Origin: a virus
Taxonomy: Duplodnaviria; Heunggongvirae; Uroviricota; Caudoviricetes
Reading direction: 5' to 3' (one strand)
DNA: 4,985 nt
IMG/VR virus record: IMGVR_UViG_2579778535_000006
A model generated the notes under the pieces. The model was not told where the DNA came from and did not search any database. It saw only the letters and a program-made list of their open reading frames with translations. Below, one piece after another: positions 1 to 4,985 of the stretch. The first letter of the stretch is position 1. Each line of letters begins with the position of its first letter. Position numbers and translations under genes: made by a program.

Positions 1-118
1 ATGACAAAGTCATCGGGCATTATCTGAACATAAAACACTATCAATAAGTTGGAGTCATTACCGTGGTTATGAATTTTATATTGAGAATTATCCTGAAGCA
101 GGGCTTTATCTTGCAGAA

Positions 119-679
119 ATGCTTTACTTACCCATTGATTTAATTGAGAGTTTCCAAAAACTTTATACGGTAACTGATCAAATACGTAACAAAACAAGTT
201 TCTTTTTACCTCAGAATCCTGAGTTAATATATTGTTGGGAGCAACTAAAAACATCTGTTTCCCGAGGCTTCTCAACTAAAATTCAGGAGCACTTAGCAAT
301 GGGCGTTCTACTTTCGTTAGGAGTGAATCATGTTAATCATTTACTTTTATCATATAGTAAACAATCATTGATAAGTCGTTGTTATAACCTGCTGCTATCC
401 GAACCCGGCACAAAATGGACAGCAAACAAGGTTGCTCGATATCTCTACATTTCTGTTTCTACATTACATCGCCGTCTAGCAAGCGAGGGGGTAAGTTTCC
501 AAAGTATACTGGACGATGTGAGGTTAAATAATGCGTTGTCTGCTATACAAACGACGGTAAAACCTATAAGCGAGATTGCCAGAGAAAATGGTTATAAGTG
601 TCCTTCTCGTTTTACTGAAAGATTTCATAATCGTTTTAATATAACACCAAGAGAGATAAGAAAAGCTTCCAGAGAGTAA
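119..679 (+). CDS. AraC/XylS-family transcriptional regulator; 5' end uncertain, possibly truncated or frameshifted
   Basis: The C-terminal ~95 aa ([42 protein letters not shown]...[26 protein letters not shown]) has the layout of the AraC-type double helix-turn-helix domain. ORF is AT-rich. First canonical start is ATG 119 with no obvious Shine-Dalgarno; the frame is open back to position 5 but closed by TGA at 2-4. By position it could correspond to the DLP12 ybcM regulator, but I cannot confirm this. Confidence 0.6.
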
Positions 680-743
680 AAGTGTTTTAAGAAGGAGCAA
701 TTCTATCGATTTTGATTTTGGGAAATCAACACGGCATAATTAT

Positions 744-772
744 GTCACCGGAGCCTGAACAACTCCGGTGAC
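744..772. repeat. Perfect 10-bp inverted repeat with 9-nt spacer (GTCACCGGAG-cctgaacaa-CTCCGGTGAC)
   Basis: Read directly from the sequence. Lies between the AraC-family stop (679) and the nin operon start; followed by TTCTGCGC, a weak T tract, so it is either a weak terminator for the upstream gene or a protein-binding site. Confidence 0.4.
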
Positions 773-795
773 TTCTGCGCTAAACGGGGACGTTT

Positions 796-897
796 ATGCG
801 CACATACAATCCAAACTCTCTTCTCCCTTCACAGATGCAGAAATGCACCTGCAATTCTTTGCATCTAGCGTTTGACCTCTGCGGAGGGGAAGCGTGA
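796..897 (+). CDS. Small hypothetical protein, 33 aa (ylcH-like)
   Basis: ATG 796 to TGA 895-897 translates to [33 protein letters not shown]. Its stop overlaps the GTG start of the next gene (GTGA), and a 33-aa ylcH sits at this position in DLP12. Not in the supplied ORF track (below length cutoff). Confidence 0.4.
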
Positions 898-1349
898 ACC
901 TCTCACAAGACGGCATCAAATTACATCGCGGCAACTTCACCGCTATCGGTCGGCAGATCCAGCCTTATCTGGAGGAGGGCAAATGCTTTCGCATGGTGCT
1001 TAAACCGTGGCGTGAGAAACGCAGTCTTTCCCAGAATGCACTCAGCCACATGTGGTACAGCGAAATCAGTGAATACCTCATCAGCAGGGGTAAAACGTTC
1101 GCCACTCCAGCTTGGGTAAAAGATGCTCTCAAACACACATATCTCGGTTATGAAACCAAAGACCTGGTTGATGTCGTAACCGGTGATATCACCACTATCC
1201 AGTCGTTACGCCATACCTCCGATCTTGATACCGGAGAGATGTATGTCTTCCTGTGTAAGGTTGAAGCCTGGGCGATGAATATTGGTTGCCACCTGACTAT
1301 TCCACAGAGCTGCGAGTTCCAGCTGCTGCGCGACAAGCAGGAGGCGTAA
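894..1349 (+). CDS. ybcN: NinB-family protein (phage recombination/DNA base-flipping protein, YbcN-like), 151 aa
   Basis: ORF 894..1349 starts at GTG 894, preceded by GGAGG at 883-887. The motif [16 protein letters not shown] aligns with the lambda NinB SLDQN region. Length and position match DLP12 ybcN immediately upstream of ninE. Confidence 0.8.
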
Positions 1350-1519
1350 TGGCTACACCGCTTATTCGTGTCATGAACGGACACATCTACAGAGTACCAA
1401 ATCGTCGTAAGCGTAAACCTGAGCTGAAGCCATCCGAAATACCAACACTGCTCGGATATACCGCCAGCTTGGTTGATAAAAAATGGTTGCGACTGGCAGC
1501 AAGGAGGAGTCATGGCTGA
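1349..1519 (+). CDS. ninE: NinE-family phage protein, 56 aa
   Basis: ATG 1349 overlaps the ybcN stop (TAATG); GGAGG lies just upstream. Product [56 protein letters not shown] is basic with the RKRKP motif typical of lambda-type NinE. The ORF track's 77-aa version (from 1286) is an upstream extension in the same frame. Confidence 0.8.
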   Translation: MATPLIRVMNGHIYRVPNRRKRKPELKPSEIPTLLGYTASLVDKKWLRLAARRSHG

Positions 1520-1802
1520 TTTGAGAAAAGCAGCGCGTGGTCGGGAATGCCAGGTAAGAATCCCTGGCGTATGTAATGGCAACCCTGAAACGTCTGTACT
1601 GGCACATATCCGGCTGACTGGATTGTGCGGCACCGGTACGAAACCGCCAGACCTGATTGCCACCATTGCATGTTCTGCCTGCCACGACGAAATCGACCGC
1701 CGCACGCATTTTGTTGACGCTGGATATGCAAAAGAATGCGCGCTGGAAGGTATGGCGAGAACACAGGTTATCTGGCTGAAAGAGGGGGTTATTAAGGCGT
1801 GA
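1512..1802 (+). CDS. ybcO: YbcO-like phage protein (DUF1364, putative Zn-binding nuclease), 96 aa
   Basis: ATG 1512 preceded by AGGAGG at 1502-1507; overlaps the ninE stop by 8 nt. Product starts [23 protein letters not shown] and carries two Cys pairs (C..C and CSAC) suggesting a Zn site. The ORF track's longer form (from 1473) lacks an RBS. Confidence 0.8.
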
Positions 1803-2161
1803 ATACCTACAGCATCACATTACCCTGGCCTCCGAGCAATAATCGCTATTACCGCCATAATCGCGGGCGCACGCACGTCAGCGCAGAGGGGCAGGCATAC
1901 CGCGATAACGTCGCCCGAATCATTAAAAACGCAATGCTGGATATCGGCCTGGCTATGCCTGTGAAAATCCGCATTGAGTGCCACATGCCGGATCGCCGTC
2001 GCCGTGACCTGGATAATCTGCAAAAAGCCGCTTTTGACGCACTCACTAAAGCAGGTTTCTGGCTGGATGATGCTCAGGTCGTTGATTACCGCGTTGTGAA
2101 GATGCCTGTTACCAAAGGTGGGAGGCTGGAACTGACCATCACCGAAATGGGGAATGAATGA
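1799..2161 (+). CDS. rusA: Holliday junction resolvase RusA, 120 aa
   Basis: GTG 1799 overlaps the ybcO stop (GTGA). Product [36 protein letters not shown]... matches my recollection of RusA, with acidic residues at the catalytic positions D70, D72 and D91 ([10 protein letters not shown] ... WLDDAQ). Confidence 0.9.
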
Positions 2162-2298
2162 TGTTTGAGTTTAATATGGCAGAACTTCTTCGCCACCGCT
2201 GGGGGCGTCTGCGCTTATATCGTTTCCCCGGTTCTGTTTTGACCGATTACCGAATACTGAAGAATTACGCCAAAACCCTGACAGGAGCAGGAGTATGA
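2158..2298 (+). CDS. ylcG: Small phage protein YlcG-like, 46 aa
   Basis: ATG 2158 overlaps the rusA stop (ATGA). Translated by hand to [46 protein letters not shown], stop TGA 2296-2298. Position between rusA and Q matches DLP12 ylcG. Not in the supplied ORF track. Confidence 0.6.
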
Positions 2299-2383
2299 AG
2301 TCAGAGATAACAATCAACTAATACTGTTTTGTTGATTTTTGCTTGTAATTGGCGTTCTGGTCTGATTTTTGTGGAGTAAGTTG

Positions 2384-2767
2384 ATGCGTGATATTCAGAT
2401 GGTTCTTGAGCGTTGGGGAGCGTGGGCGGCTAATAATCATGAAGATGTGACCTGGTCGTCCATTGCCGCCGGTTTTAAGGGATTAATTACTTCAAAAGTA
2501 AAATCTCGCCCGCAATGTTGTGACGATGACGCGATGATCATTTGCGGGTGCATGGCCCGTCTGAAAAAGAACAACAGCGATTTGCACGATTTATTAGTAG
2601 ATTATTATGTAGTCGGTATGACATTCATGTCACTGGCAGGTAAGCATTGCTGCTCTGATGGTTATATCGGGAAAAGGTTACAGAAGGCTGAGGGCATAAT
2701 TGAAGGGATGTTAATGGCATTAGATATCCGGTTAGAGATGGATATCGTTGTTAATAACTCTAATTAA
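2384..2767 (+). CDS. quuD: Late-gene antitermination protein Q (phage 82 / DLP12 QuuD type), 127 aa
   Basis: ATG 2384 preceded by GGAG at 2373-2376. Product [26 protein letters not shown]... with Cys cluster (PQCCDD, ICGC) typical of the Q82/QuuD family. The ORF track start at 2369 is a TTG extension; ATG 2384 has the better RBS. Confidence 0.85.
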
Positions 2768-2906
2768 TATGCCAATTGTTTACTAAAAATTATTAAAAAT
2801 GGGGCGTTGAGACGCCCCCAAAAATAAAGGGTAATATATAACAGAAGGTTTATATAGTTAGAAGCAAGGTTGTGCTTCTAAAGGAAGTGGCTTGAGGGAG
2901 CCACTT
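2768..2906 (+). promoter_or_regulatory. Candidate late promoter / Q-utilisation region (pR'-qut-like) with three stem-loops
   Basis: Sits immediately after Q, where lambdoid phages carry pR' and qut. Stem-loops seen at 2801-2818 (GGGGCGT-tgag-ACGCCCC), 2858-2881 (9-bp stem) and 2885-2906 (AAGTGGCT-tgaggg-AGCCACTT). I could not identify a convincing sigma70 -35/-10 pair by eye, so the promoter assignment is positional only. Confidence 0.25.
2785..2818 (-). terminator. Candidate intrinsic terminator for minus-strand (porin) transcripts
   Basis: The 7-bp GC-rich stem at 2801-2818 is followed on the minus strand by ATTTTTAATAATTTTT. It lies about 140 nt past the porin stop. Confidence 0.35.
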
Positions 2907-2947
2907 ATATGTTGGGGAGGCAACGCCTCCCGCAACATATCTTTTTC
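2907..2947 (+). terminator. Candidate intrinsic terminator for plus-strand transcripts (tR'-like)
   Basis: ATATGTTGGGGAGG-caacg-CCTCCCGCAACATAT forms a roughly 14-bp stem with one bulged G, followed directly by CTTTTTC on the plus strand. Position after Q and the candidate pR' matches lambda tR'. Confidence 0.5.
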
Positions 2948-2956
2948 GTAATCAGA

Positions 2957-4054
2957 TTAGAACTGGTAAACCAGACCTACAGCAACGATGTCATCAGTGC
3001 TTACACCGAGTGCTTTAGTGAAGTCATTTTTGTCAAGCAGGTTGATTTTGTAATCAACGAAAGTAGACATATTTTTGTTGAAGTAATAGGTTGCACCTAC
3101 ATCAACATATTTGACTAAGTCCTGATCGCCCCATACTCCAAGATCCTTACCTTTAGATTGCAGGTAAGCAACGGACGGACGCAGACCGAAATCGAACTGA
3201 TATTGTGCAACAGCTTCGAAGTTTTGGGCTTTATTAGCAACGAAGTGATCAGCAAATACAGTCATATTCTGGGTTTCAGAATAGGTAGTGGCCAGGTAAA
3301 TGTTGTTAGCGTCATATTTCAGACCTGCGGCCCAAACTTCTGCATTTTTACCGGAAGCAAATACTTCAGGAAGAACTTTCCCTGCATTAACTTGAGTGTC
3401 GGTACGATCAGATTTCGCATAAGTTGCACCGATACCGAATCCTTCGTATTCATAGGTAGCAGAGAAACCGAAGCCATCACCGTTACCTTCAGTGTAGTTA
3501 TCGAAATCGCTACGATCGTTTTTGCCTTGGTACTGAGCAGCAAAGTTCAGACCATCAACCAGACCAAAGAAGTCGTTGTTACGATAGGTTGCAACACCAG
3601 TTGCACGTTGAGTCATGAACACGTCGGTTTGAGTCCAAGTGTCACCACCGAATTCTGGCAGGACGTCAGTCCACGCACCGATGTCGTATGCTACACCGTA
3701 GTTACGGCCGTAATCGATGGAGCCGTAGTCACCGAATTTCAGGCCAGCGAAGGCAAGACGGGTTTTATCTTTGGAGGAACCTTGAGATTCAGCGCGGTTG
3801 CCTTTGAATTCATATTCCCACTGACCGAAACCAGTCAGTTGATCGTTGATTTGGGTTTCACCTTTGAAGCCAAGACGGGCATAAGTAGTATCACCATCAT
3901 CTGCATCATTAGAGGAGAAGTAGTGCTTAGCATTAACTTTCCCGTACAGATCCAGCTTGTTACTGTCTTTATTATAAATTTCAGCTGCCTGAGCAGACAT
4001 CGCCATTAGTACTGATGCAGCTACAGCAGAAATTGCCACTGTTAATTTTTTCAT
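2957..4054 (-). CDS. nmpC: Outer membrane general porin, OmpC/OmpF/PhoE/NmpC family (prophage-encoded, NmpC/Lc-like), 365 aa, intact
   Basis: Minus-strand ORF; true start is ATG 4054-4052 ([23 protein letters not shown] signal peptide, [10 protein letters not shown] cleavage site). Mature N-terminus [17 protein letters not shown] and the motifs RLGFKGETQ and GNGDGFG, plus a C-terminal ...GLVYQF, are those of enterobacterial 16-strand porins. The ORF track's start at 4114 adds 20 non-signal residues and is rejected. No IS interruption. Confidence 0.9.
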
Positions 4055-4481
4055 CGTGAGCCCTTTTTTTGAACTATTATTAAAAAATGATGTCACTGCG
4101 CGATAAATATTCATCTAATCAATGTGATTATTTCAAGATGTAAGTTTTGGTTTCTCGTTTGATTTGTGAAGTAGATCTCTATTTTTATCTGAACTTTTTT
4201 CTATCGAATCCTATTCATGGCTCTTGGCTGAATAAAAATAAATCTATTAGCCAATTTATATTAACGGCTGTTATTTATAAGTGCTCTATAATTTGAAGGT
4301 TCAATTTAAACCGGCTAAAAATAACACTGGAAATTATTTTTTGGTTATTTGTTGAGATTTGCTTATGTATTTGTAGTGGTGTTTTCAATACTCGGTAGCA
4401 TTCTCTCAAATATCATTTAGTGGTTTACGTACGTAAAAAATTGGTTATGCTGTTAAGAGTGGTTACTTCGTCACACAGCTT
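4055..4481 (-). promoter_or_regulatory. AT-rich upstream control region of the porin gene (promoter not mapped)
   Basis: Roughly 570 bp without a credible ORF between the porin start (4054) and the holin start (4627), strongly AT-rich with many A/T tracts, as in porin regulatory regions. The exact promoter is not resolved. Confidence 0.3.
4424..4437. promoter_or_regulatory. Perfect 14-bp palindrome TTTACGTACGTAAA, candidate dimeric regulator binding site
   Basis: Read directly; self-complementary over all 14 nt, embedded in AT-rich DNA about 45 bp upstream of the plus-strand terminator and about 190 bp upstream of the holin start. Confidence 0.3.
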
Positions 4482-4515
4482 AAACCCGCCGTCGAGCGGG
4501 TTTTTCCATTTTTTG
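4482..4515 (+). terminator. Rho-independent terminator, plus strand
   Basis: AAACCCGC-cgtcga-GCGGGTTT stem (8 bp, GC core) followed by TTCCATTTTTT. Orientation is unambiguous: the T tract follows the hairpin only on the plus strand. About 110 nt upstream of the holin start. Confidence 0.6.
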
Positions 4516-4626
4516 AGTCTCGATATTAGCTGATAACCCAATACCTGAGTTATTCACTGACTCCGAGTCTGTTACGTTTCGTAGTATTCCCTCAATTTAC
4601 ACCCGCTTTGTCTGCGAGGTGGGGTT

Positions 4627-4842
4627 ATGAAATCCATGGATAAGTTAACAACGGGTGTCGCCTATGGCACCTCAGCAGGTAGTGCCGGGTACTGGTTTTT
4701 ACAGCTGCTAGATAAAGTCACTCCCTCACAGTGGGCAGCAATAGGTGTGCTGGGTAGCCTGGTATTTGGCCTGCTGACGTACCTGACAAACCTTTATTTC
4801 AAGATTAAAGAAGATAAGCGCAAGGCTGCGAGAGGTGAATAA
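4627..4842 (+). CDS. essD: Class II holin (pinholin), phage 21 S-type, 71 aa, with dual-start motif
   Basis: ATG 4627 preceded by GAGGTG. Product [71 protein letters not shown]: Met1-Lys2-Ser3-Met4 dual start, a Gly/Ala-rich weakly hydrophobic TMD1, a hydrophobic TMD2 and a charged C-terminal tail, as in S21 pinholin. Confidence 0.9.
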
Positions 4843-4985
4843 TGCCTCCATCATTACGAAAAGCCGTTGCTGCTGCTATTGGTGGCGGAGCAATTGCTAT
4901 AGCATCAGTGTTAATCACTGGCCCAAGTGGTAACGATGGTCTGGAAGGTGTCAGCTACATACCATACAAAGATATTGTTGGTGTA
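4842..4985 (+). CDS. rrrD: SAR endolysin (phage 21 R-type lysozyme), 5' portion only; continues past window end
   Basis: ATG 4842 overlaps the holin stop (TAATG). Translated by hand to [48 protein letters not shown], whose Gly/Ala-rich N-terminal segment is a signal-arrest-release domain. Partial, 48 codons in window. Confidence 0.85.

Follow-up and report, generated by a model that had tools for sequence, protein, structure and literature searches.

What is the short spacer between the late antiterminator gene and the porin gene of a lambdoid prophage for, given that it can be folded into a series of hairpins? The stretch analysed here (4,985 nucleotides, called the window throughout) poses this question at positions 2768-2956. 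A sequence-only reading of the window had left three answers standing side by side: face-to-face terminators for two converging transcription units, a short plus-strand RNA started at a late promoter pR' in the manner of the lambda 6S late leader, or a structured small RNA derived from the 3' untranslated region of the porin mRNA. The evidence assembled below favors the last, and the hairpin cluster, taken as a whole with its origin and its action, is very probably the gene for the small RNA IpeX. How this RNA may act on the porins of its host is a separate matter, for which a base-pairing mechanism is proposed as a prediction.

The spacer and its prophage setting

According to its open reading frames, Pfam matches and annotation, the window holds the late region of a lambdoid prophage. 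The plus strand carries, in order, a truncated AraC-type ybcM, ybcN, ninE, ybcO, rusA, ylcG and quuD, and the holin and endolysin genes follow from position 4627, beyond the porin gene. The quuD gene converges on the minus-strand porin gene nmpC, whose stop codon occupies 2957-2959, leaving a spacer of 189 bp (Table 1). The window is co-linear with the cryptic prophage DLP12 of E. coli K-12 (window 63-3023 and 3015-4985, one mismatch in total) and by this sequence identity is a prophage of the DLP12/PA-2 type. The sole structural difference from K-12 is the IS5 element inside the K-12 nmpC, at about window 3015-3023; up to the porin stop codon, K-12 coordinates are converted into those of the window by subtracting 571572. 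The parent porin gene is thus intact here whereas it is interrupted in K-12, and the strain that carries the window could express both porin and IpeX from the porin promoter. An IS5 at the same point of nmpC also occurs in phage 434B.

An inverted-repeat scan recovers the four hairpins first noticed by eye and adds a fifth, weak one made of A and T only, which had not been listed. The leftmost hairpin has a 7-bp G+C stem (2818-2812/2807-2801) with the loop CUCA, followed by A and UUUUU. On the plus strand it is flanked by A-runs on both sides, and the terminator scan calls it on the minus strand only, as the sequence-only reading had proposed. The largest hairpin begins 19 nt after the nmpC stop codon and pairs 2907-2914 and 2915-2921 with 2925-2931 and 2933-2940; on the plus strand the motif CTTTTTC lies directly 3' of it, at 2941-2947, where it had been reported. 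The suggestion that both strands be folded against shuffled controls was also borne out. The minus strand (2960 to 2791) reaches a minimum free energy of -62.9 kcal/mol, compared with -30.6 +/- 3.5 kcal/mol for 200 dinucleotide shuffles (z -9.3, none as good), and the plus strand (2768-2956) reaches -65.5 against -41.9 +/- 4.0 kcal/mol (z -5.9). The weak A/U hairpin is dropped from the RNAalifold consensus; its loop and 3' arm belong to the predicted seed described below. The three G+C-rich hairpins (2858-2940) would mainly serve to keep the RNA compact and resistant to nucleases.

Table 1. Features of the spacer and its surroundings, in window coordinates
Feature	Position	Strand	Evidence
quuD, Q-type late antiterminator, convergent with nmpC	2384-2767	+	Pfam PF06530, E 3.5e-53; annotation
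IpeX small RNA, 167 nt, 3' untranslated tail of nmpC/lc porin mRNA	2793-2959	-	K-12 coordinates and sequence identity
Intrinsic terminator of nmpC/IpeX	2795-2818	-	Terminator scan; Term-seq 3' ends
Predicted antisense seed, IpeX nt 106-138, 5'-UAUAAACCUUCUGUUAUAUAUUACCCUUUAUUU	2822-2854	-	Duplex calculation; conservation
Weak all-A/U hairpin, 7 bp (2835-2841/2850-2856)	2835-2856	-	Inverted-repeat scan; folding
Hairpin, 9 bp (2858-2866/2873-2881)	2858-2881	-	Inverted-repeat scan; folding; consensus
Hairpin, 8 bp with 6-bp conserved core (2885-2892/2899-2906)	2885-2906	-	Inverted-repeat scan; folding; consensus
Large hairpin, 15 bp, one bulged C	2907-2940	-	Inverted-repeat scan; folding of both strands
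nmpC/lc-type porin gene, intact (no IS5), parent mRNA of IpeX	2957-4054	-	Pfam Porin_1, E 4.7e-157
Late promoter pR', qut-like block and tR'	4424-4510	+	Homology to VT2-Sakai and phi24B; terminator scan

A small RNA on the porin strand

The K-12 gene ipeX is tabulated on the reverse strand at 574365-574531, with a length of 167 nt (supplement of PMC8313858). Converted, this interval is window 2793-2959; on the minus strand it begins exactly with the nmpC stop codon and ends in the U-run that follows the leftmost hairpin. The spacer sequence is shared at 100% identity with K-12, the 3' flank of lc in phage PA-2 and phage 434B, and over window 2700-3000 the identity with K-12 is likewise 100%. 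The element lies between the stop codon of the prophage porin and a Rho-independent terminator, on the porin strand, as it does downstream of lc in PA-2. In sequence, place, strand and length it is the same as the IpeX of DLP12 and PA-2 (Castillo-Keller, Vuong and Misra 2006; EcoCyc ipeX). Judged by these coordinates and this identity, the spacer element is the already described IpeX, and hence a rediscovery; the suggestion of a structured small RNA from the porin 3' untranslated region was the right one. Reviews describe IpeX as a 167-nt RNA of DLP12 that is synthesised within the porin transcript, from the promoter of the porin gene, and then processed out of it, and that lowers the synthesis of the host porins OmpC and OmpF or, in other words, represses ompC and ompF.

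A reading of the raw sequence had thereby picked out a real regulatory RNA that is labelled neither by Rfam nor by the RefSeq record of MG1655. A search of the whole window against Rfam at E <= 1 returned no IpeX family and no relevant match, the only one being a chance match to a Wolbachia sRNA model at 566-798 (24 bits against a gathering score of 291). The MG1655 record leaves ipeX unlabelled, while it does label micC and micF.

Published Term-seq data from K-12 place strong minus-strand 3' ends at 574367/574366, equivalent to window 2795/2794, with an exactly matching sequence. These fall within the interval (2785-2800) in which the sequence-only reading expected minus-strand ends, and confirm the leftmost hairpin as a terminator of that strand. 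The plus-strand ends expected at 2941-2947 are not listed, expression in uninduced cells being low. A further minus-strand end at K-12 574476 corresponds to window 2904, 3 nt past the large hairpin, and could mark a short RNA of about 55 nt or else a decay intermediate that this hairpin protects. A Rho-dependent minus-strand end at K-12 574331 (window 2759) lies inside quuD, in antisense, and is attributed to transcripts reading through the IpeX terminator.

A promoter scan of the minus strand finds nothing promoter-like immediately upstream of 2959. The RNA has been quantified in K-12 transcriptomes, and the IpeX-containing RNA of that strain is probably made by read-out from IS5, because the transposase gene insH2 has the orientation of nmpC, the 3' ends at the terminator are strong, and a table derived from RIL-seq includes a node named insH-2.ybcQ.IGR, listed without partners.

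Conservation of the spacer and readings of the plus strand

Of 5426 complete E. coli genomes, 2510 (about 46%) carry the IpeX element, which also occurs in 36 phage records. Every one of the 128 matches to the terminator pattern in IMG/VR is the IpeX element, at an identity of at least 90%. A 20-base pattern searched in one genome per prokaryotic species finds it in E. coli only, apart from one contaminant contig. That contig, NZ_VJYK02000722.1 (442 bp), belongs to an assembly of Streptomyces alkaliterrae and carries an exact 21-base IpeX match, almost certainly as E. coli or phage contamination of the assembly. One prophage (IMG/VR contig, 3823-4588) carries an insertion of an IS200-type transposase gene after the porin stop codon and ahead of the large IpeX hairpin, so that IpeX is separated from its parent mRNA. 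The sequence upstream of IpeX in that prophage, which is not porin, was considered as a possible module boundary and rejected, being this same insertion.

Nucleotide diversity ranges from 0.002 to 0.06 across IpeX, similar to quuD, compared with 0.1-0.35 in the adjoining porin coding sequence, and it falls sharply at the porin stop codon (coding 2960-3540, IpeX 2793-2959). The porin gene is diversifying or mosaic, and its 3' tail is held constant. Within IpeX, stem columns vary less often than the others (12 of 64 against 24 of 50; Fisher p 0.001), a value that is indicative only, as are all p-values from this set of related sequences collected with a terminator pattern. The terminator stem is also invariant in six E. 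coli variants picked by BLAST and not by that pattern. The variants analysed number 30-39 distinct sequences, all at least 90% identical, and divergence this low makes covariation uninformative about the hairpins or the strand: for every hairpin there are 0 compensatory pairs in 30 distinct variants, with a covariation term of -0.09. One-sided stem changes give G.U pairs at about five sites on the minus strand and at four on the plus strand, with no clear strand preference; one of them, A to G at 2877 (6 of 30 variants), leaves G.U in the minus-strand RNA but A.C in the plus-strand RNA.

These data bear upon a simpler view, in which the spacer contains only face-to-face terminators and stem-loops that stabilise mRNA, the leftmost ending the porin transcript and the rightmost the Q transcript, without any independently functional RNA. 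Convergent genes are often separated by bidirectional or convergent terminators. The minus-strand half of this arrangement stands, through both the scan and the Term-seq ends, and the rightmost hairpin, read on the plus strand, has a 15-bp stem with five T behind it. That it terminates transcription on this strand is unproven. About half of the distinct variants have a shorter run of four or three T (CTTTTAG or CTTTGAG), the terminator scan does not call this hairpin, and the Term-seq tables list no plus-strand 3' end at K-12 5745xx, although the missing end is weak evidence because quuD is poorly expressed in uninduced cells. The same hairpin is, moreover, part of the minus-strand RNA, with the minus-strand 3' end at 2904. 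Conservation is higher across the 140 nt that separate the outer hairpins than in the porin gene, which is more than mere terminators would require, and the spacer corresponds to a published RNA with a reported OmpC/OmpF phenotype. A terminator for the Q transcript at 2907-2947 is accordingly possible but unsupported, and the view that the spacer contains terminators and nothing else is improbable.

Far less probable still, and refuted by the evidence here, is a short plus-strand RNA of the 6S type, which would start at a diverged pR' after Q, fold into four hairpins, end at 2947 and comprise qut and tR'. It would have the expected position, since pR' directly follows the Q gene in lambda, 933W and phi24B, and the plus strand does carry a hairpin with a T-run at 2907-2947. 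Yet on the plus strand the promoter scan calls nothing from 2633 to 2957, the mapped 3' ends of the spacer in published Term-seq are those of the minus strand, and the true homologue of pR'-qut-tR' lies elsewhere, at 4424-4510. There, window 4423-4505 is 78% identical to the stretch annotated in VT2-Sakai and phi24B as 'putative late promoter / Q utilization / rho-independent terminator'. The alignment includes a -35 element TTTACG (4424-4429), a -10 element TATGCT (4446-4451; TATGCT/TATCAT in the alignment), the conserved GAGTGGTTAC and the terminator, whose hairpin (4482-4503, with a T-run) is also called by the terminator scan. The similarity to known pR'-qut regions that had been sought in the spacer is therefore found here, 120 nt before the holin gene essD. 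In VT2-Sakai and phi24B this block directly follows Q, and its location beyond the porin gene implies that a cassette of porin and IpeX was inserted between Q and pR'. With the lambda 6S/pR'-qut-tR' system the spacer shares only the neighbourhood of a Q gene and a plus-strand hairpin with a T-run; it has neither a promoter nor sequence similarity.

Hardly any credence can be given to a third plus-strand reading, namely that the region serves a protein gene, ORF1 (2909-3118). This frame is annotated in the PA-2 record and as a hypothetical protein in 434B, and it has a Shine-Dalgarno-like GAGGGAG (2893-2899) at good spacing from an ATG inside the large hairpin. It is open for 69 aa, however, in only 24 of 76 distinct natural sequences, is cut to 12 aa in 27 of the 76, and runs antisense to the variable 3' end of the porin gene. 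As the frame is not conserved, ORF1 is probably an annotation artefact. The minus-strand RNA IpeX is thus retained as the product of the spacer.

Predicted pairing with host porin mRNAs

The longest invariant run of IpeX comprises 23 nt (2850-2828) and lies outside any strong stem. It coincides with the predicted seed, which consists of the loop and 3' arm of the weak A/U hairpin together with the U-rich linker before the terminator. Only 3 of 29 seed columns are variable, against 24 of 50 in the other unpaired parts. The seed is accessible, with a mean unpaired probability of 0.89 for its loop ACCUUCUG and an opening cost of about 4 kcal/mol. The invariance could also stem from recent spread or linkage, and not from selection.

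Duplexes were calculated in windows, with opening energies, between IpeX and the leaders of ompC, ompF and ompA, which were taken, like MicC and MicF, from NC_000913.3. For ompC, 27 bp are predicted over -31 to -3, which take in the Shine-Dalgarno sequence as well as the MicC site: an uninterrupted block of 15 bp, including one G.U, between IpeX nt 110-124 and ompC -7 to -21, over the Shine-Dalgarno GAGGG; 9 bp between nt 130-138 and -23 to -31, at the MicC site; and three more at -3 to -5. The hybridisation energy is -24.3 kcal/mol, or -15.1 kcal/mol net of opening, and the validated MicC-ompC pair gives -22.1 and -17.4 kcal/mol with the same script. A 36-nt region around the seed (IpeX nt 105-140) reaches -26.7 kcal/mol with ompC, an energy attained by none of 1000 shuffled ompC leaders (z -5.1), nor by any of 1000 shuffled seeds (z -4.5). 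Natural phage DNA, of which about 1 Mb was scanned, likewise contains no site as good; about five distinct sites there reach -24 kcal/mol. In 5353 of 5371 genomes the stretch of ompC targeted by the seed shows an identity of at least 99%.

The match to ompF is shorter and less exceptional, comprising 19 bp over -14 to +9, which cover the Shine-Dalgarno sequence and the AUG at the MicF site. Its energies are -18.6 and, net of opening, -11.8 kcal/mol, against -20.3 and -16.5 kcal/mol for MicF-ompF, and its standing against shuffles is marginal (23 and 49 of 1000 as good; p about 0.02-0.05). By the same calculation, the leaders of ompA, ompN and nmpC itself form no net favourable duplex with IpeX. 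Cofolding with IpeX gives ddG values of -18.4 for ompC, -14.3 for ompF, -10.9 for ompA and -8.9 for nmpC.

These calculations run against the received description of the RNA. The authors who first described IpeX in 2006 reportedly found no complementarity, and Hfq is reported to be dispensable for ompC and needed for ompF, which is only partly echoed in other literature. Reviews hold that the action of IpeX on ompC and ompF involves no base pairing, or that complementarity alone does not account for it, and the effect of IpeX on ompC has been reported to be independent of Hfq. It is because reviews state the contrary that the predicted pairing is open to a test. No report of pairing with ompC or ompF occurs in the literature searched, the original 2006 text lying outside that search; both mRNAs are absent from a target-prediction table for ipeX published in 2021, and CLASH supplements make no mention of ipeX. 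The antisense match to the two ribosome-binding sites is thus apparently unreported, as a prediction from duplex calculations.

The mechanism proposed from these elements may be outlined as follows. IpeX forms the untranslated 3' end of the nmpC/lc mRNA, which encodes the phage porin, and is transcribed with it. This mRNA ends at the leftmost hairpin, the intrinsic terminator of the minus strand, and, according to the literature, IpeX is freed from the longer transcript by processing. Its working part would be nt 106-138, an invariant segment with little structure that lies between the hairpins and the terminator and may pair in antisense with the translation initiation regions of the ompC and ompF mRNAs and so block ribosome binding in the manner of MicC and MicF. 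Synthesis of OmpC and OmpF would thereby be lowered, as the literature reports for IpeX, and a cell that expresses the phage porin would exchange its own porins for that of the phage, whose leader is not complementary and would escape repression. The long duplex with ompC and the shorter one with ompF would also explain the reported difference in the need for Hfq. The plus strand of the seed segment resembles an inverted ompC-type leader, which suggests that part of a host porin leader was taken up by the phage in antisense orientation; this piece would then have been fused to the 3' untranslated region of the phage porin. That IpeX is a phage-borne antisense RNA of this kind, with its seed at 2822-2854, about 27 bp of pairing to ompC, about 19 bp to ompF and a captured piece of leader, appears somewhat more plausible than the contrary.

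The systems closest to this proposal are MicC and MicF, whose sites on ompC and ompF overlap those predicted for IpeX (-31 to -3 and -14 to +9), with similar duplex energies. The first 16 nt of MicC (GUUAUAUGCCUUUAUU) are repeated in IpeX as GUUAUAU...CCUUUAUU, with a 5-nt insert replacing one G. The covariance models of MicC (RF00121) and MicF (RF00033) nevertheless match nothing in the window at E <= 1, so that by these Rfam models IpeX is not homologous to either and the likeness concerns the mode of action only. The differences extend to architecture and origin. The seed of IpeX is internal, beside the terminator, whereas those of MicC and MicF are at the 5' end; IpeX comes from the 3' end of an mRNA and is phage-borne, whereas MicC and MicF are chromosomal, with genes of their own. 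Furthermore, its complementarity extends into the Shine-Dalgarno sequence of ompC, which MicC does not cover.

A second comparison is with small RNAs derived from 3' untranslated regions, such as CpxQ, SroC, MalH and NarS. Like them, IpeX shares the terminator of its parent mRNA, is processed according to the literature, and has as its predicted seed a conserved single-stranded stretch upstream of the terminator. Unlike them, it has a prophage moron as its parent, it carries three extra G+C-rich hairpins, which are unusual for the class, and its effect on ompC is reported to be Hfq-independent.

IpeX has stood in the literature since 2006 as an exception, a porin repressor that works without complementarity. 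Should the 27-bp match to ompC prove functional, it would become an ordinary antisense repressor, and the porin and its small RNA would together clearly exemplify a prophage moron that replaces host porins through imitation of the control exerted by MicC and MicF. The presence of the element in nearly half of the complete E. coli genomes would make this matter for phage superinfection exclusion and for antibiotic permeability. The predicted seed is the one result that deserves follow-up, and its confirmation would resolve the mode of action of IpeX.

The left end of the window provides some minor observations. Positions 1-62 match sequences annotated as IS1A/IS1B transposase elements, and this IS1 end truncates the AraC-type regulator gene ybcM at a junction near position 63. 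The junction occurs in 0 of 5426 complete E. coli genomes, where no place covers at least 80% of window 1-140. Downstream of ybcM, a plus-strand hairpin (tgtcaccggag...ctccggtgac, 744-778) coincides with a published plus-strand Term-seq 3' end, classed as 'orphan', at K-12 572350, which corresponds to window 778.
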